A stretch of 64,000 nt of DNA from a virus (IMGVR_UViG_3300021255_000040:1-64000), one strand, 5' to 3'. Shown: positions 37,824 to 54,267, numbered from the stretch's first letter. Numbers and translations are program-made. Notes: generated from the sequence alone by a model not told the origin.

Positions 37824-38141
37824 ATGACACAGAACAACAGTAACAACAACCAGGGAATCATCAACAGCTGGTCACTCATTGCCTTCGCAAGAAGTCATGG
37901 GAAGATGCAAGTCGGTGAGTTTGCAAACAAGGAGACTGGAGAGGTCTTCAAGAGTTGCATCTTCACTGACCCAGCTGGTGACAGATGCTTCGTGGCATTC
38001 AGCTCCAAGATGGGTGAACTGACCCCAAGAGAGATTGCTGCCATGAAGGATGAACTTCAGGTGGTTCAGCTGGAGTCAGGCAACTTCAGCCTGTGCAAGC
38101 AGGGTCAGAATGCCTGGGAGGATGTTGACCTTGGCCTGTAA
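37824..38141 (+). CDS. Early hypothetical protein, copy 1
   Basis: 105 aa; collinear paralog of 39606..39920 (SWSL.AFA.SHGKMQVG.F.NKETGE.FKSCIFT). Confidence 0.8.
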   Translation: MTQNNSNNNQGIINSWSLIAFARSHGKMQVGEFANKETGEVFKSCIFTDPAGDRCFVAFSSKMGELTPREIAAMKDELQVVQLESGNFSLCKQGQNAWEDVDLGL

Positions 38142-38272
38142 GAGGGAGAAATGGGGAGAGTGTGACAGGCTCTCCCCTTCCTTTCTTTTCTTTTCAAGAG
38201 AAACACCGCAGAACCTGCAAGCACAATAAAAAGAAAATTTTATAAGGTCAACATTGGAATTAGCTTTTTCAG

Positions 38273-38301
38273 TATTCAAGGGAGACAGCACCATTCCTAT
38301 A
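38273..38301 (+). promoter_or_regulatory. Conserved 29-bp motif, copy A (candidate phage promoter)
   Basis: TATTCAAGGGAGACAGCACCATTCCTATA; aligns with copies at 39433 and 53910. Confidence 0.6.
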
Positions 38302-38305
38302 TCTT

Positions 38306-38412
38306 GGCAGGAAAGTCCTTGCTGTTGGGAGTCAAACCAGTGACACTAATCCCCCAACATTACTAATCCAATGTCACTGGGGAGCAGATTGGCCATCTGC
38401 TCTACTTTTTTT
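38306..38412 (+). ncRNA. Candidate pseudoknotted small RNA with intrinsic terminator
   Basis: TGTTGGG(38323-29)/CCCAACA(38353-59) interleaved with CCAGTGACA(38337-45)/TGTCACTGG(38372-80); hairpin GAGCAGAT/ATCTGCTC followed by a T-run. Confidence 0.55.
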
Positions 38413-38439
38413 TGAAATATTAACTAAAACCCAGATAAT

Positions 38440-38697
38440 ATGAAGAAGATTTATAAAGGTGAATGGTGCTATAGTTCATCCACACCTAATAGGACTGAGA
38501 GAATCAAGTCTCATAAGGAATTTGAGGCAAGTGACTTAAAGAAGATGCTTGATGAAGGTTGGCAGGTTAAGGTAACTAAACCTAAGAGACCTAGAATCAA
38601 GAGAGAATCTTTTAAGGTTATCATCACTTGTTTTGGGCCTATGAAGATTACTATTGAAGAGTATAATCAGCATTGTAAGGACTTTAAAACTCTATGA
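38440..38697 (+). CDS. Hypothetical early protein
   Basis: 85 aa ORF with A-rich leader. Confidence 0.5.
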   Translation: MKKIYKGEWCYSSSTPNRTERIKSHKEFEASDLKKMLDEGWQVKVTKPKRPRIKRESFKVIITCFGPMKITIEEYNQHCKDFKTL

Positions 38698-38836
38698 TAT
38701 GTATAAGGTATTTGATTCTCTAGGGAAGCTGGTTAGAGCTGGCTTCTCTACTTACCTTGATGCATTTAATTATAAGTGTGCATTTGGTAATTCAGGTTGG
38801 TATATTTCTCATTAAATATAATAAGGTATGGGATAC

Positions 38837-38980
38837 ATGAGTAAAAAAGATATGGTTGCCTTACTTTTACAGGCAAGAAATATTCTCCACAAGCAGGAAA
38901 ATGGCGAAGAGGTTCTCCCTCAAGACATAACTCTGGCACATGACTATGTTGATATGGTCATTGATGATTTGATAAAATAG
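38837..38980 (+). CDS. Small hypothetical protein (47 aa)
   Basis: MSKKDMVALLLQARNILHKQ...; followed by a hairpin. Confidence 0.4.
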   Translation: MSKKDMVALLLQARNILHKQENGEEVLPQDITLAHDYVDMVIDDLIK

Positions 38981-39107
38981 GAGTTGGGCTTCACTTGTAG
39001 AAGCTCTTCTTCTTTATTATATTGCTATTAGGCAGATACTTCTTCTTCTCTTTCTATCTTTTTTTATTATATTTTTATTATCTTTGCAGCATTAAAACAA
39101 TATAACT

Positions 39108-39287
39108 ATGGTAATACTTGGAATTCTCATTGCTTGTTGTGTTTGTTGGGTTACTGTATTTATAGCCCTCAACTTCTATTATGATACTATAAGCAAGAAT
39201 AAACCTAAAAGCATAACCTTGAGGGTAACTCTCATTAGCTTTTTCATCATGATCAGCTTGTTGTCTTTAGGTTATTGCTCTCACTAA
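39108..39287 (+). CDS. Small two-TM membrane protein (59 aa)
   Basis: MVILGILIACCVCWVTVFIAL..TLISFFIMISLLSLGYCSH; TATCTTTG at 39079-39086. Confidence 0.5.
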   Translation: MVILGILIACCVCWVTVFIALNFYYDTISKNKPKSITLRVTLISFFIMISLLSLGYCSH

Positions 39288-39432
39288 TATATAATAGTAC
39301 ACGTACATTATATTATATTAGGTAGGTCAAAGGCCACACACCACATTAGCTTTTGGCTTACCTTTTTCTTTCTTTTATATTTCTTTCTTTTTGTAAGTAA
39401 AGCAAGATGAAGAAGCTTTAGAGCTTTATAAA

Positions 39433-39461
39433 TAGTCAAGCGACACATCACCACTCCTATA
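39433..39461 (+). promoter_or_regulatory. Conserved 29-bp motif, copy B
   Basis: TAGTCAAGCGACACATCACCACTCCTATA, upstream of 39606. Confidence 0.6.
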
Positions 39462-39605
39462 TTTTGGAGAGATAGAGAGAAGTTGGGTAAATCTAGCTAA
39501 TCTTATATTTCTACCAAGTTTTAGGGTCTGAGAGGGTTTGCTGTCCTTGATGATTTATGTTAGTATTGCAGCACATACAGGACAATTAGGGGCCTGAATT
39601 ACACT

Positions 39606-39920
39606 ATGGCTAATACAGCTCAGAACGTAGGTATTAAGAACAGTTGGTCACTTCTGGCATTTGCTAAGTCTCATGGCAAGATGCAGGTGGGAGATTTTGT
39701 CAACAAGGAAACTGGTGAGGCTTTTAAGTCTTGTATTTTCACCAATCCTGAGGATAACAGCCGCTGCTTTGTTGCTTTCTCCAGCAAAATGGGAGAACTG
39801 TCTCCCCGTGAGATTATGGAGCAGAAGGATAACCTCCAGGTTGTAGAACTGGAGAGTGGTAACTTCTCACTCTGTAAGCAGGGTGCAAATGCTTGGGAAG
39901 ATGTGGAGTTGGGTCTTTAA
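39606..39920 (+). CDS. Early hypothetical protein, copy 2
   Basis: 104 aa paralog of 37824..38141. Confidence 0.8.
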   Translation: MANTAQNVGIKNSWSLLAFAKSHGKMQVGDFVNKETGEAFKSCIFTNPEDNSRCFVAFSSKMGELSPREIMEQKDNLQVVELESGNFSLCKQGANAWEDVELGL

Positions 39921-40191
39921 TAGACTCAGCTTTCCCTCTTAACAGGACAAGCTAATTAACTGTGTTATAAGTGGTATGTGTGTAGAGATTGCAGGTTATT
40001 CCCCCTCCTAGAGCTGATAAGACTTCCAACTCTACACACTTTTTCAATTATCCATTTTAACATTGCATTCTTTACTCTCCAAGATAGTTGCACATACTCA
40101 ACTATGTGCCTCTTGCTATCTATCTTTTTTATTTAGCTTTAGGCACTTAGATTACATTTTACTTCTTTAAAACCTTAAAACATTACAAATT

Positions 40192-40473
40192 ATGAAACGT
40201 ATATTAGTTAGATATTACTCTCCAGAAGAAATTGGTGCAGAAAATGAACATTTCACTAAAGAAGAACTTATAGAGAATTGCTTTAGAGTAAGTGAATGTA
40301 CTGATGAATCCTCTGCATTAGATGCTTATGCTAATACTCCTGCTACTTGGTCTACTCTATTAGATGATGCAGTATTACTCTTTGATGCTAAAGAACTTCA
40401 TGAATTTCTTGATAATGCTGTTAAGGCTATTGAGGAAGATGATGTAGATTGGTTGGAACAACATTTTATTTAA
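40192..40473 (+). CDS. Acidic hypothetical protein
   Basis: 93 aa ORF. Confidence 0.55.
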   Translation: MKRILVRYYSPEEIGAENEHFTKEELIENCFRVSECTDESSALDAYANTPATWSTLLDDAVLLFDAKELHEFLDNAVKAIEEDDVDWLEQHFI

Positions 40474-40677
40474 TTATTATGAGTTACTTATCTCACTACC
40501 CAAATTGTATAGGTTGTCCAGTTACTAAATATTGTGGAACTATGGTTAGTTCTATAAAATTATGTAATTCCTATGATGAACCCTCTATTGAAGAGGTAGA
40601 TGCTTATGCCGAAGAGCAAATAGCATTATCTCTTGAAATCATGTAGATAAAGCAAAACCCTTTAATCCTTTAATAAC

Positions 40678-41034
40678 ATGAGACCAACAGAAGCAACAAA
40701 GATACAATATAATGGTTTCAACTACCTTGTTCATAATGTAATTAATGAGAACCATTATGGTAGAAAAAGAATATATCATGTTCTAACTAACAATCAGAAG
40801 TGGTGTGGCTCTTTACTCCCTGAGATAGTTGGTTATTCCAATGTAGATTCTAAAGGAGAACATGATCTGAACTACAAAAGAAACCCTTCCATGCTCACAG
40901 CTCTTAAGCCTTACTATGAAGTAGATTTTGTAGAAGATAATACATATAAGAACTATGACTTTAAGGCTATGGGTTTTCCTGTAGACAATGACTCTTACTA
41001 TAGATTCATTTATGTAGAACCCTATGATGATTAA
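40678..41034 (+). CDS. Hypothetical protein
   Basis: 118 aa ORF. Confidence 0.6.
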   Translation: MRPTEATKIQYNGFNYLVHNVINENHYGRKRIYHVLTNNQKWCGSLLPEIVGYSNVDSKGEHDLNYKRNPSMLTALKPYYEVDFVEDNTYKNYDFKAMGFPVDNDSYYRFIYVEPYDD

Positions 41035-41046
41035 AACAATATAACT

Positions 41047-41532
41047 ATGAAACAAATTACAGATTTCATATATAATGATGTTGTCCTTTACGCAAAGGGA
41101 TGGTATGAACGTTCTAATAATATATGTGAAGACTTAGATTACATCTTCTCCAAGATTTACGGATGGACACAGCCAACAGAACAAGAAGTATCTCATAGAA
41201 TGATGATTGTTCTAGATAGACTCTATGAAGCAGCTGATGTAACAAAGAAAGACTGCCCTTATTGTTGGTATATGTCACATGCTTTATTTGAGGAAGAAGT
41301 AAGAAAAAGAATAAGTCTTTATAAGAATTGTTCAAGAGATATGGCTATTATTCTTACTGTTCTGTCTATTCTTCAAGGACTATCAAAAGATGATATTAAA
41401 CTCAACGCCCCTCATTACGGTAAGAAAGAACACTTTAGAATGGGTTCATTATGCGGTAAAAATCCAATATCTATGACATATACTGAAATGAACAAATTAG
41501 CACAACGGATGTTTGGAACTAATAAATCATAG
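41047..41532 (+). CDS. Hypothetical protein
   Basis: 161 aa ORF. Confidence 0.6.
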   Translation: MKQITDFIYNDVVLYAKGWYERSNNICEDLDYIFSKIYGWTQPTEQEVSHRMMIVLDRLYEAADVTKKDCPYCWYMSHALFEEEVRKRISLYKNCSRDMAIILTVLSILQGLSKDDIKLNAPHYGKKEHFRMGSLCGKNPISMTYTEMNKLAQRMFGTNKS

Positions 41533-41764
41533 ACTATGACACTATCCCAAGGCTACAGGATGGCACAGGCTGCACACCATAAGCAGCCTTGCCTTGATTA
41601 TCCTTATCTAGGTATTCCTGATGAGGATGATGAAGACATTTTAAACGAAACCCAACATTAAAGATTATGATTATACTATTATTAGCATTAGTAACAACAC
41701 TGGCTATCTTCCTCATTGGAGGTATTATAGGTAATTTTATAGTCAACAAATCCAAAGAAGTATT

Positions 41765-42061
41765 ATGAATAAGACGCTATTTGATATATACAACTCCCTT
41801 AAGGCTTCTTTCGTTGAGGCTATGGAGCCTTATCTTGTGAAGCAACATGTAGTGACTTTCTCTCCTACCCTTCTTATAAATCTTCCTAATGATAACGATG
41901 AGTCATTTGAAGAGATTACAAGTATAGAGTATGATGAGAAAGAACAGACATGATATGTCCATAACTACATTACAAGCGTAGACTTGATGACCAATGAATA
42001 TTGGACACCATTAAGGGATATGTCATTTGACGAACTATTTAAAATATCAGAAAGGCTATGA
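41765..42061 (+). pseudogene. Small gene interrupted by an in-frame TGA
   Basis: Frame continues after TGA (41951-53) as YVHNYITSVDLMTNEYWTPLRDMSFDELFKISERL to a stop overlapping the next ATG. Confidence 0.5.
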
Positions 42062-42388
42062 TACAAAAAAGATACCAATTCCAAGGAAAATCAGGCATTG
42101 AGTGGTCTGACTGGTATGACTATGAAGATGATGATACTCAACTAGAAGGACTGCAAGACCAAAAGTGGCAACTTAAGAACAAGTATAGACAAGAATTTAG
42201 AATAAAACAATAAAACTACAGCTATATAGAGGCTAGCATCTGTGTAGATCGAAGCAGCCTATAGTCTCTGTCACATAGGATAAATCGTAGGTTATGTACT
42301 CTAAGAGGCAGTCAGGAGTATCTGTAAAGGTTTGAAGTATTCCTAAAAGAGAATGAGATGTCTCAATAAAACTTTATGACTGTCATTT

Positions 42389-42476
42389 GGTTCCTTAGCT
42401 CAGTTGGATAGAGCATTTTCTTATGTCCTTTCTAAGAGAGGCTTAGAGGATGTTTTACCAACGAGCTATTGGAACC
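42389..42476 (+). pseudogene. tRNA-Arg 5'-half remnant folded into a long hairpin
   Basis: GGTTCCTTAGCTCAGTTGGATAGAGCA (acceptor + D arm), TTCTAA anticodon-loop remnant, no T arm; 3' side is an imperfect reverse complement ending GGAACC. Confidence 0.6.
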
Positions 42477-42514
42477 TTCTTTTATTACTTTTGTGCAATA
42501 AAATAGGATAACGT

Positions 42515-42985
42515 ATGTGGAATATTAGAAAAGAAGTAAGTAAAGGGGATTACATATATGCAGTAGTACCAGAGCATCCCAAAGCAACAAAGAACCACTA
42601 TGTTCTTATGCATAGAGTAGTGATGGAAAACTTCCTTGGTAGAATGCTTAAAGATAATGAAGTTGTACACCATATAGACCACAATAAAAAGAACAACGAC
42701 ATAAGTAATCTTGAATTGATGGATAAAGCCCTTCATGTAGAAATGCATAGCAAAGAGCAAGGAAGACAAATGGTAAAGCTGATATGTCCTTGGTGCAAAA
42801 AAGAATTTATTGCGGAAAAAAGATGCACACATCTACAAAAGCCCTCAAAGTATCATTGTACATGTTGCTGTAGAAGCTGTAGAGGCAAATTATATAGATA
42901 TATACAGATGAATAGAGTTACTTCAGCTATTCGAGATGCTATAAATAATAATGTAGTTGCTTCATATAAAAGATACTTAAGCTAG
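42515..42985 (+). CDS. HNH homing endonuclease with Zn-binding C-terminus
   Basis: 'HRVVME..LGR.L...EVVHHID.NK.NN...NL', CxxC motifs; TACTTTTG at 42486-42493. Confidence 0.85.
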   Translation: MWNIRKEVSKGDYIYAVVPEHPKATKNHYVLMHRVVMENFLGRMLKDNEVVHHIDHNKKNNDISNLELMDKALHVEMHSKEQGRQMVKLICPWCKKEFIAEKRCTHLQKPSKYHCTCCCRSCRGKLYRYIQMNRVTSAIRDAINNNVVASYKRYLS

Positions 42986-42991
42986 AAGCAA

Positions 42992-43063
42992 GCCCCCATA
43001 GTTTAATGGAGAAAACAAGATCCTTCTAAGATTTAGTTGGTGGTTCGATTCCACCTGGGGGTA
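42992..43063 (+). tRNA. tRNA-Arg(TCT)
   Basis: GCCCCCA..AGATC-CT-TCT-AA-GATTT..GGTTCGATTCC..TGGGGGTA. Confidence 0.85.
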
Positions 43064-43235
43064 CAGACATATTCATGTTATTTAAAGGGTTTTAGAAAGT
43101 AGAGGAGAAATAAGGAGACTGATACTAGCAAATAGCACAATCCTGTCTCCTCTATCTTTCTTTTTTGCAACCTTTAAATACACTCACAACAAATACAATT
43201 CACTTAAATATTTAACCCTTTAAACAATTAGCATT

Positions 43236-43820
43236 ATGAGTGCAAAAGAAAATAAAAGGTATTCACCAAATGAAATTACTCTTATTAATGGGCACAATGC
43301 AATTTTTGATGAACCATTGTTAAGAGAATCTATGAATTATTTAAATATGGATTTTCCACAAAAACGTGTTTTTATTGCTATTTCCTCTACAGGATACCCT
43401 GAAATTCGTTTTGCAAATAGTTATATCAAGTTACATAGAATTATAGGACAATATGTATTTAAAGATAAAGAAGGTGTATATCAATATCATCATATAGATG
43501 GAAATAAATTAAATTCTTCAGCAAAAAACCTACAACAAATGACATTATCAGAGCATCAAAAGCTGCATGGAACAGGTAGAATAATATCAGAAAAACATAG
43601 ATTAGCTATTTCAAGAGCTAGAAAAGGAAAAATTCCTTGGAATGTCAGAGCAATATTAATGCTAGACAAAAATAATAATATCATTTCTGAATTTGCTTCT
43701 ACTAAAGTAGCTGCTGAAACAATAGGTGTGTGTAAAACTGCAATTACAAACAACTTAAATAATCGAAGTAAATATTGTAATAATTATAAATTTGTGTATA
43801 AAGATGAATATATCAGCTAA
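43236..43820 (+). CDS. HNH homing endonuclease with NUMOD-like C-terminus
   Basis: 'LHR.I', 'HHIDGNKLN....NL', 'KG..PWN', 'EF.S...AA'. Confidence 0.8.
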   Translation: MSAKENKRYSPNEITLINGHNAIFDEPLLRESMNYLNMDFPQKRVFIAISSTGYPEIRFANSYIKLHRIIGQYVFKDKEGVYQYHHIDGNKLNSSAKNLQQMTLSEHQKLHGTGRIISEKHRLAISRARKGKIPWNVRAILMLDKNNNIISEFASTKVAAETIGVCKTAITNNLNNRSKYCNNYKFVYKDEYIS

Positions 43821-44055
43821 ACAACAAGCCATTCAGGACATGATGCTTGAACTTAAAAAGCGTAACAAAAGTTTTATAGCTTTCCGTAGAGAACTTAACC
43901 CTGTAATGAGAAAGCTGGTATCCCAACAAATTAAAGAGCAGCAGAGTATTACTCCTTTCTCTACTCCTACTCCCTCAACCTCTCAACTAATAGCCCGTTG
44001 CTTCTTCTGCAAAGGCGAGATTAAATACAGTAACTATAGTAAATATTATAAATAA
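43792..44055 (+). CDS. Hypothetical protein
   Basis: 87 aa ORF. Confidence 0.45.
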   Translation: MCIKMNISAKQQAIQDMMLELKKRNKSFIAFRRELNPVMRKLVSQQIKEQQSITPFSTPTPSTSQLIARCFFCKGEIKYSNYSKYYK

Positions 44056-44068
44056 AGGAGAAATAACT

Positions 44069-44320
44069 ATGGCAACAATTAAATCATATACAGACTTGCG
44101 TTATCAAGTATATTCCTTAAAAAGAAATGGTGATTTGGATAAACCTATTACAATACCAATATTGACAAGGGAAAGGGCTAATAAGTATTTCAGTGATTGT
44201 GTCCAATGTGCCATTGTTTCTATTGACGAACATGGTTCTATCGTTGAAATTATTGAAAAAAATACAGAACCGATAAAAACTAATAATAATAAACCCAAAA
44301 CCATAAAACGAAAAATATGA
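44069..44320 (+). CDS. Hypothetical protein
   Basis: 83 aa; N-terminus 'KSYTDL' echoes the next ORF's 'KNYTDL'. Confidence 0.5.
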   Translation: MATIKSYTDLRYQVYSLKRNGDLDKPITIPILTRERANKYFSDCVQCAIVSIDEHGSIVEIIEKNTEPIKTNNNKPKTIKRKI

Positions 44321-44646
44321 AAAACTATACAGATTTAGAACAATCAAAGAAGTTAGCGGAGATACTGCCACTTGATAGTGCTGATATGTACTATGACAAG
44401 GTAACCAAAATTCCTTATTATTCATTAAGTGGAAGTGTTCCTAAAGATTGGTTTATTCCAGCATGGAGTCTTTCAAGTTTGCTTAATGTTTTGCAAAATC
44501 CTTCATTACATAAAACTTATACAGGTTGGCGATGCGATACTTATAATGAGAATTGTACTGAGTGTAAATTAGGAGACACAGCAGATAATCCTATTGATGC
44601 TTGCTACAATATGATTATAGATTTACATGAACAAAATTTGTTGTGA
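44317..44646 (+). CDS. Hypothetical phage protein
   Basis: 109 aa; 'YTDLEQSKKLAEILP..SADM', 'PAWSL..LL..L'. Confidence 0.6.
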   Translation: MKNYTDLEQSKKLAEILPLDSADMYYDKVTKIPYYSLSGSVPKDWFIPAWSLSSLLNVLQNPSLHKTYTGWRCDTYNENCTECKLGDTADNPIDACYNMIIDLHEQNLL

Positions 44647-45051
44647 ATGACACAAGAAGATAAAAAACTATTGTTGAAAGACCTTTGTGCAAGGTTACCA
44701 TATGGGGTTAAAGGAATCAGGACATATAAACCCGAAGAAACAATTACACTTACCGAGATTATACCAAGATGTAAAATGAATCCCAATATTGGAAATGGCT
44801 CATTTTGTGAACTTGGATTCGATGAAACACTCGACTGCTGTGTTATTACAGAATTTAAGCCCTATCTCCGTCCAATGTCAAGTATGACTGAGGAAGAGAA
44901 GAATATCTACGAATACAATAGAAACAGCAATGTTGAAGTTGTGAGAACAGCATTATTTGATTGGCTCAATAAGAATCATTTTGACTATCGTGGTTTAATA
45001 CCAATTGGTCTTGCATTAGAGGCTCCAGAAGGAATGTATAATGTAAAATAG
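44647..45051 (+). CDS. Hypothetical phage protein
   Basis: 134 aa; 'LLLKDLCARLPYGVK', 'KPYLRPMSSMT', 'DWL...HFDYRGLI'. Confidence 0.6.
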   Translation: MTQEDKKLLLKDLCARLPYGVKGIRTYKPEETITLTEIIPRCKMNPNIGNGSFCELGFDETLDCCVITEFKPYLRPMSSMTEEEKNIYEYNRNSNVEVVRTALFDWLNKNHFDYRGLIPIGLALEAPEGMYNVK

Positions 45052-45060
45052 AAATTAATT

Positions 45061-46566
45061 ATGGATTACAAGAAATTACATAAAGATACTATAACCAAAC
45101 TACAAGAGATGGTTAATAGTGGAAAAATTACAGTCGAAACTGCGTGCAGTATATGTGCAGATTTTGTTCCAGAGTCAGAGGATGAGAGTATAAGAAATGG
45201 GCTTATTGAATATATAAAAGACCAGCAATCTTCTTTTATCTCTGCACCAGATTGTAGAGATAAGTATGAAGAAGAGGAGAATAATAAGTATAACTCTTGG
45301 ATTGCTTGGCTTGAAAAGCAAGGTGAACAAAAGTCTATATGGCATAATGAAGATGAAGAACCCCAAAGAGGTAGTCTTATCCTTCTCATTATGCAAAGTA
45401 GAACTCCCATTGTCGCTAAAATAATAGAACCTAATCACACTTTCAATCATGGAGAAAGATGGGCTTATATTGATGATTTGCTTGAAAAGGAAGGTGAGAA
45501 ACCTGCTGATAAAGTTAAGCCAAAGTTTAAGGTTGGCGACTGGTGCATAGATAATGAAGATGGCACTATATTTCAAATAGTGAAAGTATTAGATAATACT
45601 TATACCTATAAGGCAAATGAAGGTAAAGAGTATTCTTGTACGCATTATTCTTTGGAAAATGATGCAAGAATTTGGACTATTCAAGATGCAAAGGAGGGTG
45701 ATGTGCTTTTTCAAGATTTAATGGGTGGTAAAACATTTATTTATAATGGCATTAACCCTAGCATGGCAATACTTTATTCTTTTATTATAAGTAATGATGG
45801 TGAAGATGTTTTGCCATATCATATAGGTAAACCAAACACAGGTATAGGAAATATTGAAGAAAACAAAAATATCATTCATCCTGCAACCAAAGAACAGCGT
45901 GACCTATTATTCCAAAAGATGAAAGAAGCTGGGTATGAATGGGATGCTGAGAAGAAAGAGTTGAAGAAAATCCACAATGCATTAGAAGAATGTGAAATAA
46001 AAAATATAGAACATGGCAAATACTATTATTGTATTAAAGATTACTTCTGTGGTGGCAGAAAACAAGCATCTAAAGGTGATGTTGTTCAGGCATTAAGAGG
46101 TATGAGTATGATGGCTCTTGGTGTAAAAGCCAATGAATATTTTATTCCTGTTAATACAATTAAACAAATGTCTACTTGGAGTGAAGATGATGAAAGAATA
46201 TATAGAGGACTACATAATTTAATCTATTCTACTCCATATTGCGATTCAAGAAAAGAATTGTCTGACTGGTTCAAATCCCTTAAAGAACGTGTTCAGCTAC
46301 AACCAAAGCAAGAGTGGAGTGAAGAGGATGAAAAGATGCTAAATCATGTTATTATTGATATAGAATCTCTAAAAGAGTATGTTTATTGTAAACATTTGTG
46401 CGATGAAGAAATTACTTGGCTCAAATCTCTCAAAGACAGATACACTTGGAAGCCGAGTATAGCACAATTAAATGCTCTTAGTATTGTGTCAAAAGGAAAT
46501 GCTCCTGATGATATAGAAGCTATTGTGTCACTCTATCAAGATTTATTGAAACTAAGGGAGGAATAG
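45061..46566 (+). CDS. Modular hypothetical protein
   Basis: 501 aa of short modules (PKFKVGDW, WTIQDAK.GDVL, PATKEQRDLLF, WSEEDE-type x2). Confidence 0.65.
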   Translation: MDYKKLHKDTITKLQEMVNSGKITVETACSICADFVPESEDESIRNGLIEYIKDQQSSFISAPDCRDKYEEEENNKYNSWIAWLEKQGEQKSIWHNEDEEPQRGSLILLIMQSRTPIVAKIIEPNHTFNHGERWAYIDDLLEKEGEKPADKVKPKFKVGDWCIDNEDGTIFQIVKVLDNTYTYKANEGKEYSCTHYSLENDARIWTIQDAKEGDVLFQDLMGGKTFIYNGINPSMAILYSFIISNDGEDVLPYHIGKPNTGIGNIEENKNIIHPATKEQRDLLFQKMKEAGYEWDAEKKELKKIHNALEECEIKNIEHGKYYYCIKDYFCGGRKQASKGDVVQALRGMSMMALGVKANEYFIPVNTIKQMSTWSEDDERIYRGLHNLIYSTPYCDSRKELSDWFKSLKERVQLQPKQEWSEEDEKMLNHVIIDIESLKEYVYCKHLCDEEITWLKSLKDRYTWKPSIAQLNALSIVSKGNAPDDIEAIVSLYQDLLKLREE

Positions 46567-46568
46567 TT

Positions 46569-46751
46569 ATGAAAGCAAACGAATTATTAGACAAGGCTCT
46601 TGATTTTATCGTAGAGACGCAAGAACAGGATGATTATATCTGTGAGCAGATGTGTGAAGAATATGTTGGCGACTACTGTGAGAAAAATTGTCAGAATCTC
46701 AACAAAGAATGCGTTAAGTTATTTTTGCAAAAAGTATATAATAAAGGATAA
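46569..46751 (+). CDS. Small Cys-rich protein (MKANE start)
   Basis: 60 aa ORF. Confidence 0.5.
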   Translation: MKANELLDKALDFIVETQEQDDYICEQMCEEYVGDYCEKNCQNLNKECVKLFLQKVYNKG

Positions 46752-46755
46752 AGTT

Positions 46756-47172
46756 ATGAAAGAAAACGAATTAAGTTGCAAAGACCTTATGATTGGGGAT
46801 TATTTTCGTACAAAATTTGCCCAAAAGGTAGTAAAGGTTAAGGAAATAAAGCAAAGTTGTGTTTATACTGAAAATAATGGATATGAGTACAATGAAATAG
46901 AGCCAATACTACTCACCCCAGAGATTCTTGAAAAGAATGGGTTTAAAAGAGACCCACTTTGGCATCATTGTGATAAAGATTTAGATAATTACTCTATATC
47001 AGTGCAATTAGGCTATGCAAACAGAATAGAGTACATCAAAATTGCCGAGAAAGGTAAAGACAATGTTATACCAAGTGAAAGGACAAAGATGTATCTTACT
47101 CATATTAAATATTTGCATCAACTACAGCACGCTTTAAGGCTTTGTGGAATTGAAAAAACTATTGAATTATGA
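46756..47172 (+). CDS. Hypothetical protein (MKENEL start)
   Basis: 'LMIGD', 'PI.LTPEILEKNGF', 'YLHQLQHALRLCGIEK'. Confidence 0.6.
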   Translation: MKENELSCKDLMIGDYFRTKFAQKVVKVKEIKQSCVYTENNGYEYNEIEPILLTPEILEKNGFKRDPLWHHCDKDLDNYSISVQLGYANRIEYIKIAEKGKDNVIPSERTKMYLTHIKYLHQLQHALRLCGIEKTIEL

Positions 47173-47417
47173 AAGCAAACGAAGCACCAGAGAAATTATA
47201 TTTTGGAGTAGCTGATAAAAGTGTATTAGACATTTTTTCAACCAAAGAGCGTGATGATGAGATTGAATACACCCGCACTGATGCCTTTATTGAGAAGGCA
47301 GAAAATTTCTTGGAAATGTTAGGCTATGGGTTTACTATTACAGATAATATAACTCATACAAATTATGATAAAGAACAGTTGATTGATGACTTTAGAAAAT
47401 ATATGGAAGGAGAGTAA
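47169..47417 (+). CDS. Hypothetical protein (MKANE start)
   Basis: 82 aa; 'APEK.Y', 'EY.RTDAFIEKA'. Confidence 0.55.
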   Translation: MKANEAPEKLYFGVADKSVLDIFSTKERDDEIEYTRTDAFIEKAENFLEMLGYGFTITDNITHTNYDKEQLIDDFRKYMEGE

Positions 47418-47420
47418 GTT

Positions 47421-47720
47421 ATGGCAAAGACGATTAAGATAACATTCTATAATCCAAAAGAACTTTGGCGCATGTTTTGGAATTGGGTTTATTGGCCGCG
47501 TCGCAAGCAATGCGCAGAATGGATTTCTTTTCTACAAGGTCAACTTGAGTATAAGATAGTCAATGACGTGTTGATTGGTAAATACTATAACGAAGGGTTG
47601 ATTGATGGCGACTTGTGCGATAAACTTGAATTAGACATAAAGCAAGCCATTGAGGAAATCTTGGATAAGTTTGTAGATGTTTTGAAAACGCCTATACCTT
47701 TAGACGATGAAAAAGATTAA
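47421..47720 (+). CDS. Hypothetical protein
   Basis: 99 aa ORF. Confidence 0.5.
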   Translation: MAKTIKITFYNPKELWRMFWNWVYWPRRKQCAEWISFLQGQLEYKIVNDVLIGKYYNEGLIDGDLCDKLELDIKQAIEEILDKFVDVLKTPIPLDDEKD

Positions 47721-47940
47721 GACTATGAACGTAGAATTAACGAAAAAAGACATCATACACCTACTTAGGGGTGTTGAACCAAGTTATGACAAGATGGGAA
47801 TAGTGGAGGATATGGGGTTAGGGTTCTACACTGGAGGATTTGAAGATAGATTTGAGTGGCAATATCCTAACTATCATCTTTGGGAAAAGTATTCCGAGGA
47901 AGAATTGTACGGATTATATATAAAACTCACAAAAGAGTAA
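47707..47940 (+). CDS. Hypothetical protein
   Basis: 77 aa ORF. Confidence 0.5.
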   Translation: MKKIKTMNVELTKKDIIHLLRGVEPSYDKMGIVEDMGLGFYTGGFEDRFEWQYPNYHLWEKYSEEELYGLYIKLTKE

Positions 47941-48117
47941 GATTATGAAGAAGTTTCTGATAACCATATCCCCTCTTTGTGCGATATTGTTCGTTCTTAT
48001 GTGGATTTCATGTGGATTGAAATGTGTGTTGGCATTCTTTGGCGCAATGCTGTTTATTGTTGCTTTGGCATTTGGGTTTGCGAAGTGGATTGAGTTCGTT
48101 GATAAACATATAAAAGA

Positions 48118-48627
48118 TTGATTATGAAACTGATAGACAAAGACGCTTTAATAGCGGAGATACAGAGAAGGGCGATAAAGGCTGGCTTGCATGATGGCGT
48201 AATTGCTGAAACAAGGGAAGATGAATGTTATTCTATTCTTTCTCTTATCGACACCCTTGAAGTGGTAAACCCTTATGAACAGTGTATTCAATATTCAAGC
48301 ATAGAACAAGGTATAAAAGCTCATGCTGAAGAATATTCTTTCAACATAGAAAGTGAGTTGTTTAATCAACTTACGAAAGAACAACAAGCCTTATGGAGAA
48401 ATGAAATTGAACAAACTTATATTAGCGGTGGCGAAATGGGTGTTGAACTTGCAAAAGATGCACGTTATAAGGAAAACCTTAAAGTGAAAGAGGCAGACTT
48501 GGAAAAAGAATACGAAGAGTTTGTTATGAATGACCCCGTATATAATAAGTTGGTGAATGGTATTGTTGGTAAGGCTATTGCCAAACATTTCTTTGAACTT
48601 GGACTTAAAGTACAGAAAGTAGAATAG
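48118..48627 (+). CDS. Hypothetical protein
   Basis: 169 aa; 'IDKDAL.AEI.R' start, 'AKHFFELGLK.QK.E' end. Confidence 0.55.
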   Translation: MIMKLIDKDALIAEIQRRAIKAGLHDGVIAETREDECYSILSLIDTLEVVNPYEQCIQYSSIEQGIKAHAEEYSFNIESELFNQLTKEQQALWRNEIEQTYISGGEMGVELAKDARYKENLKVKEADLEKEYEEFVMNDPVYNKLVNGIVGKAIAKHFFELGLKVQKVE

Positions 48628-49002
48628 TATGGAAAAAGAATATAAAATACCTTTATATAATAATAATAAAAGTTATGTTATAATGAAAGGAGAATGTTCT
48701 CATATAGCACTAATTAGAGCAAGGAGAGCGTTTCCAAATACTTCGTTTAATAATCATAGAATTAAGACGCTAAAAACAAAATAATTATGAAAGAGCTAAG
48801 GATGATTACGACAATGTTGATAATATTGTAAAATGGATAGAAATTACTTAAAGCACAGAAAGGAGAAGTATGAAGGTTAATGCAAAACAGTTAGCGCAAT
48901 ATTTACTTAGACACCCAGATTATGAGGTGCTTATACCTACAAAAAGCGGTGTTTATTATCCAGTTGTTGATGCACAAGTTGGCAAAAATGTATTCTATTT
49001 AA

Positions 49003-49707
49003 TTGGATATACTGGAAAATAAAAATGCGACGAATAATGGAATAAAATACAGAAAGGAGAAGAGTATGATAGACAACAGAATTGAGAAAATCAGAGCTGA
49101 GATTGAAAGGCGTTTAGAAGATGCTAAAGCAGGTGTTAGACAAAATCAAAACGGAGTAAAATTTGAAATTGATAACAAGCAAGACCTTGTGATTTGGCAA
49201 CACCTTGAAAGTATGGCAGTACAGCTTCTTTCCTTCATAGACTCCTTGCAAGAAGAGCCTGTAAGCATTTGGCATGATGCAAGTAAGAAATCAGATAATC
49301 CAGAAGATGTTGTAATAATAAACCCTTCCGATAATACAGGTGAAGTACTTACAAAATGTACAGGTGTTAATCAAGGTCATATTTGGGCATATATATCTGA
49401 ACTGCTAAAACTTGATAATCTTTGCAACATTGGAAAGAATTTGCAAGAATCACAAGTTAAAGAATCAGCAGAAATTCAACACGTCAATGAAACGTGTAAA
49501 GAAAATGGCGATTCCTTAACACAAGAGTCTGTAATCAATGTATGGCATGATATGTCAGAGGAGGCAGAAAATGGTAGAAACATCATTATCATTGACCCAA
49601 AAGACTTCTATGGTGCTGTATTAAGGAGAGGTGGCTCGCAATTAAAAAATCACAATAAAGAAAGGTATGTGAAATGGGCGTATGTTGACGAATTGATAGA
49701 ACTATGA
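49003..49707 (+). CDS. Hypothetical protein with duplicated DUF551-like WH..WAY module
   Basis: Two copies of WHD.S....IIINP/DP.D..G.VL...WAY..EL. Confidence 0.55.
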   Translation: MDILENKNATNNGIKYRKEKSMIDNRIEKIRAEIERRLEDAKAGVRQNQNGVKFEIDNKQDLVIWQHLESMAVQLLSFIDSLQEEPVSIWHDASKKSDNPEDVVIINPSDNTGEVLTKCTGVNQGHIWAYISELLKLDNLCNIGKNLQESQVKESAEIQHVNETCKENGDSLTQESVINVWHDMSEEAENGRNIIIIDPKDFYGAVLRRGGSQLKNHNKERYVKWAYVDELIEL

Positions 49708-49982
49708 AAGCAAATGAACTGACTGGCAAGATTCTGTTGTCTAACGGCTTTAAGGAGACTGAGAATGATGTATATGAATGCTTCTTACAAGTGTCAGAGC
49801 CTCTTGATACTGGCGACACAGATGTCTATTACAGACGGCTATACATGTATTACAACTATTTGGAGTGGCGGTGGTCTGTGTGGTATCTTGGTGGAGAAGG
49901 TAAGCGGCATTTAGGCTATTGCAAGACTGTTAAACAACTGAATAAACTATTGCAAAAGAATAAAATTGAAAAAGAAATATAA
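49704..49982 (+). CDS. Hypothetical protein (MKANE start)
   Basis: 92 aa; 'IL..NGF', 'V.QL..LL...IEK'. Confidence 0.55.
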   Translation: MKANELTGKILLSNGFKETENDVYECFLQVSEPLDTGDTDVYYRRLYMYYNYLEWRWSVWYLGGEGKRHLGYCKTVKQLNKLLQKNKIEKEI

Positions 49983-49984
49983 CT

Positions 49985-50326
49985 ATGAGTATTGATAGTA
50001 AGATTACATGGGCTATATTGGAGAAATATGGCTATCATGCTCCTTATACTGGTGATATTAACAACTATAACACTTACCTCCATGAGTTATTACATCATAT
50101 TGGTGAAGATTTCTTAGAAAAGATTCATATTGACAACAAGATTAATGGTGTTATTACAAGAGAAACAAAACAAAGATACCAACTTATATCATCTCATAGT
50201 GCAAGAAGATCATTTGCTACTATTAATACTCTTAGAAATATTCCAAGAAATAAGATTCTTAGAGCTACAGGGCATTCAAGCGAAAAAGCATTTGTACGAT
50301 ATATCTGCTATGATGAAGATAGCTAA
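49985..50326 (+). pseudogene. C-terminal fragment of a tyrosine recombinase
   Basis: 'ISSHSARRSFAT', 'TGHSSE..F.RYI' present; N-terminal domains absent (113 aa). Confidence 0.75.
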
Positions 50327-50332
50327 AAACAA

Positions 50333-50361
50333 AGAGAGATGGGTTTAATGCCCACCTCTCT
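50333..50361. terminator. Hairpin between convergent genes
   Basis: AGAGAGATGGG-tttaatg-CCCACCTCTCT. Confidence 0.6.
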
Positions 50362-50389
50362 TATGTATTGAGTTATTACAAAAACTATG

Positions 50390-50722
50390 TTAGTTTTCTT
50401 TATTCATCCATTCCTCTGCCTGCTTACACCAATCATCACAAGCAGCAGACTTATGATACTCAGGCGTCGCTTTTGGAAAGCAATCTGGGCAATAGAACTC
50501 ATGCGGAGGCTTGGCTTCAATAGATGAAACGTGCCAGTCATGATGTATAAGCCATTGCGTTAACAGAATGGTTGCCGTAGCGCAGAATGGATGTAGTACC
50601 TCATTACGTGTCTTCTCAGAATACATCGTAGGAACTCTTATCTTCTTGCCGCAGACAGAACAATACACTTCCTTGCTCCGCTGGTCAAGACCATACTTTT
50701 TTCTTAATTCTTCTATTGTCAT
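50390..50722 (-). CDS. Zn-finger hypothetical protein
   Basis: CSVCG..H..C, CPDC. Confidence 0.55.
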   Translation of the reverse strand: MTIEELRKKYGLDQRSKEVYCSVCGKKIRVPTMYSEKTRNEVLHPFCATATILLTQWLIHHDWHVSSIEAKPPHEFYCPDCFPKATPEYHKSAACDDWCKQAEEWMNKEN

Positions 50723-50866
50723 TTGTATTTAAATGTTACAATAAGTATGTTACTATCAAAAAACAAAGAAGAAAATAACTGCCAATACAGTCAGTACACC
50801 TAATAAGTAGTACCCCAATAACTTGAAACTCTTCTTCATAATCTTACAACTGCTATGTTACACACT

Positions 50867-51862
50867 CTATTCTAGTATCAACATCTTCTTTCCTGTACCT
50901 CCTTGTTTCTTATATACTCTTAGTGTAATAGCATTACTCCAAATAGAATCATTCTCATTATGTGCTTCGACTCTAAAATAAACAGCATCAGAAGGAATAG
51001 TCGTAGTAACAAGATTACTTTCAAATCTTGTGCTGTTATTATCTACTATAACATTGATGTGGTCTGCATTGGATGTCTCAACACTTAGAGTGTTTGTACT
51101 TTCATCAAAAGCAATGGATTTGAACACTAAGTTGGTATTATACAACTTTGAGTAGAATCTGCCTTCACGATATGCTTTAAGACACTCATGCTCTGTAAAC
51201 TCAGGAACAAGAAGAATAGTTCTTCCACCAAAATCAGGAGTACGTTGAGCATAATGGTCAGGAACACAAAAGCCCCAACATCTTCTGCCAGTACTTAGAA
51301 CTCTGTTCCATATCGCCATCTCTTCTTCCTTACCACCTACCCCTATATCAGCATCAACATTATAGAATTCGACACCTATAACTCTGTCATCAAAGTCAAG
51401 CATCTCAATAATATCCTCATAAGTTAATTGGCCTTCATCTATACTACTCCAATAAGGGTGGTTTATAGTTATACCACCACCGTCTTTATATTGAAGGGTT
51501 TCCAATACCTTCTTATAAGCATATTTCCAATCTGCTCTGCCAAATCCTCTTGGAGTAGAGCCAGCAGGTGAACCAGAAGTATGAAAACAGCCTATTCCAT
51601 TAAAATGGTGTCTATCAATATTGGTCTCATGGTGTTCTGCGTTAGGCCCACCAAGGACATCATTTGGAACATTACTGAATTTACTGTTCAATGGATAAAC
51701 GGGTGCAGATGGGTAATAATTGGAAACAACGACATATTTTATGCCTCCAGCAATAAGATTTGCAAACTCTTCATTGTTATTACAATGGTCATGTGAGCAG
51801 GAAGGCACACTTATAGCAGTATTCCAATTTACATCTTTATATGGATTTATTATATTTCCCAT
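50867..51862 (-). CDS. PHP-like metallophosphoesterase
   Basis: 'HDH', 'SNY', 'AEHH...HH.N', 'INHP.W', 'EFYN', 'PDH'; small beta C-terminal domain. Confidence 0.65.
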   Translation of the reverse strand: MGNIINPYKDVNWNTAISVPSCSHDHCNNNEEFANLIAGGIKYVVVSNYYPSAPVYPLNSKFSNVPNDVLGGPNAEHHETNIDRHHFNGIGCFHTSGSPAGSTPRGFGRADWKYAYKKVLETLQYKDGGGITINHPYWSSIDEGQLTYEDIIEMLDFDDRVIGVEFYNVDADIGVGGKEEEMAIWNRVLSTGRRCWGFCVPDHYAQRTPDFGGRTILLVPEFTEHECLKAYREGRFYSKLYNTNLVFKSIAFDESTNTLSVETSNADHINVIVDNNSTRFESNLVTTTIPSDAVYFRVEAHNENDSIWSNAITLRVYKKQGGTGKKMLILE

Positions 51863-51863
51863 A

Positions 51864-52619
51864 TTATCTTACTCCATAAATACTTACAAGAATCTTATCA
51901 CCAGACTCAAAATCAGAAACTTGAACATTCAAACCACAATAAAGTCCATTAACTTCCTGCCAATCAGTTGAGTAACAATAACCATCATTTTCAGAAAGTG
52001 TAGCTACCAACGCATTGTATGACTGATTAGGATGCAGATGCTTAACCATTAAATATTTTGTTAATTTAACGTGTCTTGAAGCACCGTGATTTTCAGAGTC
52101 ATAAACTATATAGGAAACAAAAAAGTATTTATAATTACTAATGTCAACATCTTCATTATGCCATACGTTTATATTACTAGCAGATGTAATAGATACCTCC
52201 TTACTTGCAAGTTTCTGTACAGGTTTAATATCCTTAACATACGAAGGAATCTCGTCAACAAAATTAGTTGTCAGCGTAACATTAGTGCTATTTTCATTTG
52301 CTATATTGTTATATATGGCAATTTTTCTGATACAACTAATATCTGCAAAATACAAGCCATTAGCCGTAATTGTATCGTATATATTTCCATTTACATCAAA
52401 TACTCTCAAATTATTGTTTCCACCATACGACAATTTTCCTAAAATGGAAATACTTGCATCGCCTGTAATGTTAGAAACCTCGATAGCCAACACTTTATAC
52501 ACTGTGTTTATTGGAAAATCATCAAACAACGTTCCTCTATTAGCTAAACTTACATTATAATTGTTGGCAAAACTAATATTACTCTTTCTCTTAAAAAAAT
52601 TTGAATCAAAAAGTCCCAT
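51864..52619 (-). CDS. Hypothetical beta-rich protein
   Basis: 251 aa ORF, operonic. Confidence 0.55.
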   Translation of the reverse strand: MGLFDSNFFKRKSNISFANNYNVSLANRGTLFDDFPINTVYKVLAIEVSNITGDASISILGKLSYGGNNNLRVFDVNGNIYDTITANGLYFADISCIRKIAIYNNIANENSTNVTLTTNFVDEIPSYVKDIKPVQKLASKEVSITSASNINVWHNEDVDISNYKYFFVSYIVYDSENHGASRHVKLTKYLMVKHLHPNQSYNALVATLSENDGYCYSTDWQEVNGLYCGLNVQVSDFESGDKILVSIYGVR

Positions 52620-52651
52620 AGCTATTTATTTTTTTTATTGTTAAAATTCAA

Positions 52652-53770
52652 TTATGAAAATGAGCATGCTGTCACATTACCGTCAGCATCTCTGGTTATA
52701 ATAAGAATGTGCCTCTTGCCTTGATAGGAGGCACTGACAGAAGTTGCAAATCCTTCGCTATCTCTTGTAATATCTACAATACACTGAGAACCATCTGGCC
52801 AGTATCCAGTAATTCTTGTGACCAATCCATCATCATTTCTTGTAATATTGGTTGCAGTAAATGCTTCAGTAAGTATCCATGACTTCAAATTCGACAAAGC
52901 ATTACCTTCATCGGAATCAATTGAAATATCCATAGCACTTATATCAACACCACAAGTAACCTGTATATAACAATTAACTAACTCCGTATCACTTGTCTTT
53001 TCAATAGTACAAGACGTTCCTCCAGCTTCAATAGAAGAATTATCAAGAGATGTACCATCAGATTTGTATAATCTACAGTAAACTTTAGAAGAAACAGCAG
53101 CAGACAATGTAAAGACAATAATATACTTTACATCAGCCTTCATCGTAAAGTAGTGTTTATAGGTACTACCGCCAACAAAACCTCTTAATGGAATAGAAAT
53201 ACTACCAGCATATTTTCTAACTTCCTCATAGATAGTTTCTGCTACTCCTCCACTCTTAACCAAATTCTCGCTATTAGCAGCAGGTTCATCATCCACCCCT
53301 TGCCAATCAGCAACAGTAGTACTCCATTCATCAGAAGTAAGTCTATACTGAACATACTTATTGTCAGAACTCTGTGCAGTTCCTTGAACAAACTTTATAC
53401 TCATGCCACCTTTTTGCTTTGCCTGAGGCACATCATCAAGAGCTTGCGATAAGGTTTCATATACCTTTAGTTTACTATCTGTAATATGGTCTTCAGATAC
53501 ATCATATACTCCCTCTCCTACACCACTGGAGTCATTACAGAATACTGCCCATCCTGTATTGGGTACAGCAGGGTCACTGGCATAGGGTGCTACACCTGTG
53601 ATTGATGCTGTAGGGGCAGTATCAGGGTCATAGTTAGGAGGATTACAGATGTATGAGGAACCATTGTATTGCACAATGTTGTCTTTGTAGTAAGAGGCAG
53701 TAGAGCTGTACTCTCCTCTGTTCTTAGGCACATAACCTAGATTAACTGTTGTTTGGCTCATATCATTCAT
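52652..53770 (-). CDS. Fibre/adaptor-like modular protein
   Basis: 'RGEY....Y...NIV.YNGSSY' N-terminus; 'GGMSIKF..DNKYVQYRL...W.....WQGVD.EP...S.NLV.SGGV' module; TAATTTTG at 53806-53813. Confidence 0.55.
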   Translation of the reverse strand: MNDMSQTTVNLGYVPKNRGEYSSTASYYKDNIVQYNGSSYICNPPNYDPDTAPTASITGVAPYASDPAVPNTGWAVFCNDSSGVGEGVYDVSEDHITDSKLKVYETLSQALDDVPQAKQKGGMSIKFVQGTAQSSDNKYVQYRLTSDEWSTTVADWQGVDDEPAANSENLVKSGGVAETIYEEVRKYAGSISIPLRGFVGGSTYKHYFTMKADVKYIIVFTLSAAVSSKVYCRLYKSDGTSLDNSSIEAGGTSCTIEKTSDTELVNCYIQVTCGVDISAMDISIDSDEGNALSNLKSWILTEAFTATNITRNDDGLVTRITGYWPDGSQCIVDITRDSEGFATSVSASYQGKRHILIITRDADGNVTACSFS

Positions 53771-53909
53771 TTTTAAATTTTATAACATATTTTAATTAAC
53801 TAGTGCAAAATTAGTTAATCATCGGCATGTTGATAGCTTACTTAAAATAAGCATAAGTTCTATTTAAAGATTTCCTTAATTTAACAAGTGAAATAATGCC
53901 CTGCGTAAG

Positions 53910-53938
53910 TAGTCAAGAGACACAGCACCACCTCTATA
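53910..53938 (+). promoter_or_regulatory. Conserved 29-bp motif, copy C
   Basis: TAGTCAAGAGACACAGCACCACCTCTATA, upstream of tRNA-Arg(CCT) and the replication genes. Confidence 0.6.
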
Positions 53939-54020
53939 CCATGAGGGAGTAGTTACTAAGTATGTTTCTTAGATATAATATAATATAAGGTATAGTGATT
54001 ACCTTTGCAACATGAAATAA

Positions 54021-54092
54021 GCTCCCATAGTCGAGTGGATAAGACGTAGACCTCCTAAGTCTAAAGCACTGGTTCAATTCCAGTTGGGAGTA
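54021..54092 (+). tRNA. tRNA-Arg(CCT)
   Basis: GCTCCCA..TAGAC-CT-CCT-AA-GTCTA..GGTTCAATTCC..TGGGAGTA; TACCTTTG at 54000-54007. Confidence 0.85.
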
Positions 54093-54267
54093 CTATCAGA
54101 ACAAAGCGTTGTTTTGTATTTTGATTTGTTTTAGTAGTAATATTGTTTTAGGTTAATAGAAAAGTTTTGGTTGCTTCCTATTGTCTGAGAAGATAGTAGG
54201 AAGCTTTTTCATGTGATAATTCTCCCAGTGCAAACTGGTAATAATAATCTTTTAAATAATAAGTAAA

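Follow-up and report, generated by a model that had tools for sequence, protein, structure and literature searches.

Three copies of a 29-bp motif (c1, c2 and c3) precede plus-strand transcription units in the window, i.e., the stretch IMGVR_UViG_3300021255_000040:1-64000, which is the first 64 kb of a complete virus record of 123,180 bp whose ends overlap by 107 bp (Table 1). At the nucleotide level, the sole GenBank relative of this virus is the uncultured phage cr116_1 (Crassvirales, Steigviridae, Asinivirinae, Pamirivirus), a member of the same subfamily as the cultured PhicrAss001, and its host is probably a member of the Bacteroidota. The copies c1 and c2 lie among the first small genes of the plus arm (gene A, the open reading frame (ORF) ORF85 and gene A'), while c3 stands where the plus arm resumes after a minus-strand cassette. 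An original prediction had regarded the motif as an early promoter for the phage-encoded RNA polymerase (RNAP) or, alternatively, as the operator of a repressor.

Table 1. Features of the window and of the remainder of the record that are discussed in the text.
Feature	Coordinates	Strand	Description
Terminase, major head protein and virion structural protein	1-37.5 kb	-	
Plus-strand arms	37.8-50.3 kb and 54.3-106 kb	+	split by a minus-strand cassette (50.4-53.8 kb)
Element E2	37665..37725	+	TATAAT, ACCACACACCACCCCCACC, TGATTTTGG, GGGG-ATATA-CCCC; related to the motif but distinct
Gene A	37824..38141	+	105 aa; first gene of the plus arm; headed by E2, not by the motif
Terminator closing the gene A unit	38153..38190	+	intrinsic; 9-bp stem with 6 GC pairs, T-rich tail
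Motif copy c1	38266..38307	+	59.3 bits; AT-rich block, TCAAG, GAGACA, ACCA, CCTATA, TTGG
Non-coding unit after c1 (~105 nt)	38308..38412	+	ends in a hairpin and T8 terminator (38381-38412; free energy (dG) -34.7, z -2.1)
ORF85	38440..38697	+	small basic early protein family; usual gene behind a c1-type copy
Terminator upstream of c2	39320..39369	+	intrinsic; 15-bp stem, dG -19.7 kcal/mol, z -5.3, U-run; contains 39336
Motif copy c2	39426..39467	+	58.4 bits; 145 nt before the start codon of gene A'
Gene A'	39606..39920	+	104 aa; gene A paralog behind c2
HNH endonuclease gene and tRNA-Arg(tct)	42515-43064		tRNA 6 nt after the gene
Four-gene cassette	50390..53770	-	end of a lineage-specific block of ~10 kb (~44.0-54.2 kb); interrupts the plus arm
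Motif copy c3	53903..53944	+	48.5 bits; 3' end deviant, CCATGA in place of nyTTGR
Host-type -7 box (TACCTTTG)	54000..54007	+	between c3 and tRNA-Arg(cct)
tRNA-Arg(cct)	54021..54093	+	gene after c3
Strong terminator	54173..54209	+	14-bp stem and T-run; closes the c3-tRNA unit before the gene at 54268
Virion RNAP ORF	90929-102115		outside the window; 3,728 aa; crAss signature DFDVD at residue 2883, preceded by a helicase-like N-terminal region

The three strong copies of 29 bp lie exactly where they had been reported (38273-38301, 39433-39461 and 53910-53938, plus strand), and all three are indeed intergenic and co-oriented with the genes downstream. The scan of the whole genome that had been proposed as a check, carried out with a 26-nt pattern at 2–3 mismatches and with a 39-nt position weight matrix (PWM) built from twelve instances, recovered them as the only matches on both strands of the 123,180 bp. 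With the PWM, the three copies score 48–59 bits and everything else in the genome at most 6 bits, while 100 dinucleotide-preserving shuffles contained 0 matches to the 29-bp motif. The copies are 1.2 and 14.5 kb apart, not clustered and never palindromic. Other parts of the prediction had to be amended. The core of 29 bp is real, but the conserved element is longer and spans about 42 bp (positions -7 to +35). The two “weaker copies” listed at 39336 and 37676 are not members of the motif (PWM below 6 bits): the former corresponds to the 14-nt loop and the 3' arm of a 15-bp terminator hairpin with a U-run, and the latter to the distinct element E2, which is devoid of the TCAAG and CCTATA blocks. 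As for the units downstream, c1 does precede a non-coding unit of about 105 nt, as was claimed for a small RNA, but only the second of the duplicated early genes (gene A') is preceded by c2; likewise, c3 heads tRNA-Arg(cct), but a strong terminator separates this tRNA from the replication genes with which it had been joined into a single operon.

The motif was found in 8 contigs of IMG/VR, at 53 loci of metagenomes and in 3 contigs from 185,579 species genomes. It is carried by viral contigs of crAss size or by metagenome contigs in synteny with these, the virion RNAP having been verified in this genome only. Two co-oriented copies 1.7–2.1 kb apart are present in 7 of the 8 IMG/VR contigs, the eighth being a 36-kb fragment with one copy, and no third copy was detected at 3 mismatches in whole-record scans of these relatives. 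Once pooled, 89 motif instances from about 60 related contigs reduce to 44 distinct sequence variants, which yield over about 42 bp the consensus TTtataA-N3-TCAAGrGAcACAnyACCAyyCCTATAnyTTGR. Its (near-)invariant positions are TCAAG (4–8), A11, ACA (13–15), ACCA (18–21), CCTATA (24–29) and TTGR (32–35), preceded by an AT-rich TTtataA block at -7 to -1, and conservation drops away past position 35. Because TTGR lay outside of the search pattern, its invariance in 44/44 variants represents independent evidence. The coding parts of the relatives are 65–82% identical to this phage in nucleotides, with the motif almost unchanged and both of its flanks unalignable; across 33 distinct relatives, mean identity to the c2 locus is highest in the motif (90%), ahead of gene A (74%), the leader (69%) and the upstream flank (67%). 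Positional conservation in related phages, on which the original prediction had staked itself, is present, the motif standing at the same distance before the same gene families: in 42 of the pooled instances, a gene A homolog begins 131–156 nt downstream (TATA to ATG), and 28 are followed by an ORF85 homolog, in most cases at exactly 39 nt. The others are for the most part truncated by contig ends or followed by diverged relatives within the same family of small proteins. The best explanation for this distribution is that the motif belongs exclusively to a single crAss-like clade (Steigviridae, Asinivirinae).

Regarding the contigs from species genomes, L047 (88.6 kb) bears the usual two copies and is evidently a phage contig binned into a metagenome-assembled genome, whereas L046 is a fragment of 1.5 kb. 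L045 (JAGCXU010000063.1) is a true Bacteroidaceae chromosome, with genes for RsmE, a nucleoside symporter and an S41 peptidase. It contains a solitary exact copy of 33 nt with about 15 nt of flank (L045:6890-7171), co-oriented with a truncated Big_2 ORF and 220 nt from the end of the contig. For this sole chromosomal instance in the 185,579 bacterial species genomes, a phage promoter captured by the bacterium, a host gene that responds to the phage and a chimeric assembly are all conceivable.

A variant of the motif exists in a sister lineage (G009, G010 and cr116_1), where the consensus TCTAATCwAAACArnACTCCACCTATAwTTTGAT occurs upstream of the gene A' homolog, with two co-oriented copies in both G009 and G010 and one copy in the 7.3-kb stretch of cr116_1 (upstream of gp_24069). 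When aligned without gaps, this consensus matches 21/35 positions in the same frame, and it differs at positions 6, 8, 10, 20 and 21, which never vary in the lineage of our phage. The promoters of T7, T3 and SP6 likewise keep a common frame and switch a few specificity positions. That the frame is kept while otherwise invariant positions are switched argues for a reader evolving with the phage, rather than for a conserved host sigma factor.

The sequences around the copies were also considered from the perspective of transcription units. The terminator that closes the gene A unit is followed 96 nt later by c1, and another intrinsic terminator stands upstream of c2. The segment of about 105 nt after c1 looks like an insertion relative to most relatives, since their ORF85 homolog starts 39 nt after TATA; in the closest relative (G002), a different insert of similar length occupies the same site. 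At most 11 nt separate the end of a terminator hairpin from motif position 1 in L091 and at the first sister-lineage copy, too little for a separate promoter to fit in upstream. However, only 8 of the 71 contexts upstream of pooled copies pass a strict perfect-stem terminator rule, so that this argument is supported in a few cases and not generally. L091 itself (JAEEGL015119581.1, 122 kb) is a more distant relative with three copies inside 1.4 kb; a small ORF follows each copy, and two of the copies directly abut terminator hairpins.

The genes behind c1 and c2 are small and poorly characterized. Gene A and gene A' are tandem paralogs (77% identical); gene A has no match in Pfam or PHROG and ORF85 none in Pfam, an atlas search provided no usable lead, and neither protein could be placed in a family. 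The predicted model of the gene A family is confident, small and beta-rich (predicted local distance difference test: 78.7), while that of ORF85 is poor. Structural matches to the gene A model are weak (Z at most 4.0) and correspond mostly to OB-fold nucleic-acid binders (SSB, RPA, N-domain of RuvA), without any helix-turn-helix-type fold among them. Farther along the same arm, the HNH endonuclease gene is closely followed by tRNA-Arg(tct); this pairing also exists in the early arm of PhicrAss001 (gp99 HNH beside tRNA-Arg), hence a conserved arrangement. In the window, Rfam matches are limited to three tRNAs.

The third copy deserves separate consideration, as it is found at the exact point where the plus strand restarts after the four-gene cassette. 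The block of about 10 kb to which this cassette belongs (small plus-strand ORFs and the minus cassette) is absent between the same anchors in the relatives G003 and G004, the anchors being 1.4 kb apart in relatives vs. 10.3 kb here. In relatives, tRNA-Arg(cct) and the homolog of the gene at 54268 sit inside an uninterrupted plus arm, behind other tRNAs and without the motif, which is absent at the equivalent place; moreover, no tRNA was found within 600 nt downstream of any pooled motif instance in relatives. Between c3 and c2, the motif alone is shared, not the flanks. Such a placement is simply explained by a promoter, but not by an operator of gene A/ORF85 or by an element of an mRNA leader. 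The -7 box located between c3 and the tRNA might be part of a second, host-read promoter for tRNA-Arg(cct). Finally, the 58 nt from the tRNA terminator to the first gene of the replication arm (54205-54267) contain neither a canonical host promoter nor the motif, and one possibility is that the replication arm is started by read-through from c3.

Ahead of gene A, the element E2 is composed of TATAAT, a C-rich tract (ACACCACCCC), TTTTGG and a GGGG-N5-CCCC palindrome. It shares with the motif only ACACAnCACC-N9-TTTTGG, and it shows TATAAT at the place of TCAAG and CCTGA at the place of CCTATA. E2 was recovered in 6 distinct contexts, including cr116_1, and also at L105:3355-3405, while PhicrAss001 has an E2-like element at its strand switch, some 100 nt ahead of gp1 (minus strand of MH675552, about 130-200). 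It thus heads the first early gene in three Asinivirinae genera, a deeper conservation than that of the 29-bp motif, and can be viewed as a candidate for a second early signal. Because gene A and gene A' are tandem paralogs, E2 and c2 are likely to be diverged paralogs as well. Immediately ahead of E2, where the strands diverge, there are three direct repeats TATGTGT(A/C)(A/T)AAA (37575-37660); boxes similar to these repeats are present in the relatives L039 and L054 and may be regulator sites.

Altogether, the conserved footprint, the fixed orientation and distance to downstream genes, the terminators upstream and the restart at c3 make it likely that the motif is a promoter, and this promoter is very probably early. 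The timing follows from the arm of c1 and c2 (small ORFs, HNH endonuclease, tRNA-Arg), which is syntenic to the early operon of PhicrAss001. The latter is on at 0–10 min, which its authors attributed to the virion RNAP, whereas replication genes are “middle” (PMC8375218). In mechanistic terms, the motif would be a strand-specific promoter of about 42 bp in duplex DNA, firing the first small early units at the strand-switch point. Recognition would be continuous, from TCAAG through GAcACA and ACCA to the easily melted CCTATA, and transcription would most likely start at a purine right behind TTGR (~38307-38312, ~39467-39472 and ~53944-53949). The favoured reader would be the two-barrel RNAP that is packed in the virion and injected with the DNA, here the 3,728-aa protein, whose DFDVD signature places the polymerase of this genome in the two-barrel class. 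Six-frame searches of the genome returned no match to a T7-like single-subunit RNAP (PF00940), a result for which the control was uninformative. Hence, the part of the original prediction that concerns promoter function is upheld, and the virion RNAP is our tentative choice for the polymerase reading the motif, at slightly less than an even chance. It is a real, if somewhat doubtful, possibility that the motif represents the first definable promoter of a crAss-type injected two-barrel RNAP, i.e., a hairpin-free, continuous duplex of about 42 bp with a T7-like logic (an upstream specificity region, CCTATA as the melting region and a start right behind TTGR) and with specificity positions switched between sister lineages. 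The literature that we searched agrees with the earlier statement that no promoter consensus is defined for this type of enzyme. Indeed, phi14:2 is the only crAss-like phage with mapped early 5' ends, obtained by primer extension (10.1101/2020.03.07.982082), and the same literature contained no further mapping of transcription start sites (TSS), nor any for an Asinivirinae phage.

Several points weigh against an early promoter read by the injected enzyme. The motif itself served to retrieve most of the pooled loci, so that its conservation is overestimated, and the unbiased set retrieved with the gene A protein is small (4 contigs with the motif and 2 with the sister variant). The motif is absent from PhicrAss001 and from IAS virus, both of which have a virion RNAP, so it would be at best a lineage-specific version of the promoter. 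In phi14:2, early transcripts do not share an upstream motif (Drobysheva et al., 10.1101/2020.03.07.982082), and its purified gp66 transcribed only single-stranded or denatured DNA (10.1101/2020.03.07.982082); a sequence-specific promoter in duplex DNA is therefore not what the one tested enzyme suggests. Moreover, c3 heads a tRNA unit beside the replication module, which is “middle” in PhicrAss001. Both the start site and the reading enzyme proposed for this uncultured phage are deduced. Finally, two points bring the host RNAP into play, i.e., the spacing of 19 nt between TCAAG and TA(ny)TTG, which mimics the -33/-7 geometry of the host, and the need of a probably temperate phage for early expression without any injected enzyme.

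At face value, the host RNAP could read the motif either directly, as a non-canonical TCAAG-N19-TAnyTTG promoter, or after being redirected by a phage activator or sigma-appropriation factor binding the spacer, just as MotA and AsiA of T4 redirect the host RNAP at middle promoters. Bacteroidota primary-sigma promoters, which Bayley et al. reportedly described in 2000, combine a -33 TTTG with a -7 TAnnTTTG. The 19 nt from G8 to T28-A29 correspond to the usual spacing of these boxes, TAnyTTG is one base short of TAnnTTTG, and an A (30/44) or a G (8/44) stands 6 nt after TTG, at the place of a host-type start. The integrase gene is confirmed in this phage, and a likely temperate phage must express its early genes after induction; besides, the solitary exact copy of the Bacteroidaceae chromosome stands before an ORF. 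Yet, the canonical boxes themselves are missing: TAnnTTTG occurs in 0/44 variants at motif positions 20–32, where the spacing is always TA-N2-TTG or TA-N4-TTG (vs. TA-N3-TTG in the host box), and the -33 place (positions 4–8) reads TCAAG in 43/44 variants and CCAAG in 1/44, but never TTTG. The whole spacer is conserved, unlike in two-block promoters of the sigma type, and the switch of invariant positions in the sister lineage is unexpected for a conserved host sigma. In addition, no sigma-70 region 2 or region 4 domain was detected in the six frames of the genome, and the motif is essentially absent from the 185,579 bacterial genomes. The host RNAP does read the middle and late genes of crAss-like phages (10.1101/2020.03.07.982082), but the six canonical TTTG-N17-21-TAnnTTTG intergenic promoters of this genome are all in the late minus arm, co-oriented with its genes; isolated -7 boxes stand before the gene of the virion RNAP (90893) and before the tRNA that follows c3 (54000). 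Taking both sides into account, we regard a host-read motif as unlikely, albeit the explanation to be taken most seriously after the virion RNAP.

The remaining explanations do without a promoter in the motif itself. That it is the operator of a phage repressor or autoregulator, overlapping a weak, non-conserved promoter, might account for a conserved stretch (~32–42 bp) longer than most promoter contacts, for the presence of an integrase in the phage and for the same two small genes always following, as is the case with autoregulated genes. The sole inverted repeat of the motif (TCAAG/yTTGR, 5 bp, 22 nt apart, without extension) could even provide two half-sites, but within a motif of 40 nt chance alone would provide a repeat of 5 bp, and this one is lost in the sister lineage. 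The block is asymmetric and strictly oriented, lacking the dyad symmetry of temperate-phage operators, and what the original prediction had offered as its alternative comes out weakened. Further, with c3 the motif stands in front of a tRNA, a context unrelated to those genes, the gene A model is devoid of a helix-turn-helix-type fold and has but weak OB-like matches, and no tyrosine integrase was matched in the complete relatives G005 (with the motif) and G009 (with the sister version), serine recombinases not having been checked. Above all, the gaps between genes would still need a promoter, and the motif is the only conserved sequence there, which leaves the operator improbable. The same TCAAG can pair with yTTGR in a transcript, and the bases that alternate at positions 31 (C/T) and 35 (A/G) would keep wobble pairing, though solely for the top strand, as if the motif were a 5' RNA element (for stability, processing or protein binding) transcribed from the upstream TTtataA block. 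This block is TATAA-like and conserved at -7 to -1, and in E2 TATAAT directly precedes the shared ACACAnCACC. However, neither candidate helix displays a compensatory (double-sided) change, the stem does not extend, an invariant “loop” of 22 nt would be atypical, and the helices appear in the minimum-energy RNA fold of 3/44 (TCAAG/yTTGR) and 8/44 variants, with fold energies no different from those of shuffles. As DNA, both strands of the three copies fold no better than shuffles (z -1.3 to +0.6) and share no structure; an N4-style hairpin or an RNA stem was thus rejected on the basis of both-strand folding and covariation counts. With the pairing lost in the sister lineage, and the T-run of an abutting terminator replacing the AT-rich block so that an upstream promoter has no room, we deem an RNA element very improbable. 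Lastly, two or three copies per genome near the strand switch could bring to mind a DNA site unrelated to transcription (iteron of an origin, partition, packaging or recombination site). Nonetheless, this is hardly credible, given that the copies are unclustered and non-palindromic, that some 90 instances share the orientation of specific downstream genes and keep a fixed distance to them, and that one copy (c3) appears where a promoter is needed. A promoter thus remains our preferred reading of the motif.

Compared with known systems, this promoter would combine features of several classes. In T7, T3 and SP6, promoters are continuous blocks of some 23 bp whose final TATA directly adjoins +1. 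The motif is similarly one continuous block with (C)TATA before the presumed start and specificity positions switched between lineages, but it is about twice as long and its conservation goes on for 6 nt past TATA, up to TTGR. In N4, the early promoters P1–P3 are DNA hairpins (5–7-bp stem, 3-nt loop) for a T7-like single-subunit virion RNAP. The number of motif copies (about three in a genome) and their place where the early region begins recall P1–P3, which are used right after injection by a polymerase carried in the particle, whereas no hairpin exists here and the phage polymerase is of the two-barrel class. In the Thermus phage P23-45, the virion two-barrel RNAP gp96 has its own pre-early promoter motif (10.1101/2022.12.01.518664). 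The two systems have in common a conserved, lineage-restricted motif upstream of the first genes, a two-barrel virion RNAP and an occurrence in close relatives only; in contrast, the P23-45 motif is AT-rich, with at least 14 sites, and backed by TSS and chromatin immunoprecipitation sequencing data, against 2–3 C/A-rich sites known from sequence only here. The two motifs have no sequence similarity, and the polymerases are only distantly related. Finally, Bacteroidota primary-sigma promoters and crAss middle/late promoters (10.1101/2020.03.07.982082) share with the motif two T/A-containing blocks 19 nt apart, but the motif departs from primary-sigma promoters in that its 44 variants are all without a consensus box, its spacer is conserved and it is essentially missing from bacterial genomes.

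The crAss-like phages belong to the most abundant viruses in the gut, and all inject a giant RNA polymerase. In this respect, the motif supplies well-defined templates with which in vitro transcription and binding assays could address how the crAss RNAP chooses its start sites, as well as exact coordinates for 5' ends in rumen and gut metatranscriptomes. The sister variant predicts which positions set specificity, while c3 would constitute a natural case of a promoter restored after an insertion. If the virion RNAP is the reader, the chromosomal copy of L045 could be a host gene wired to fire only upon injection of the phage RNAP. If the host RNAP reads the motif instead, it would be a non-canonical class of Bacteroidota promoter that phages use for take-over.

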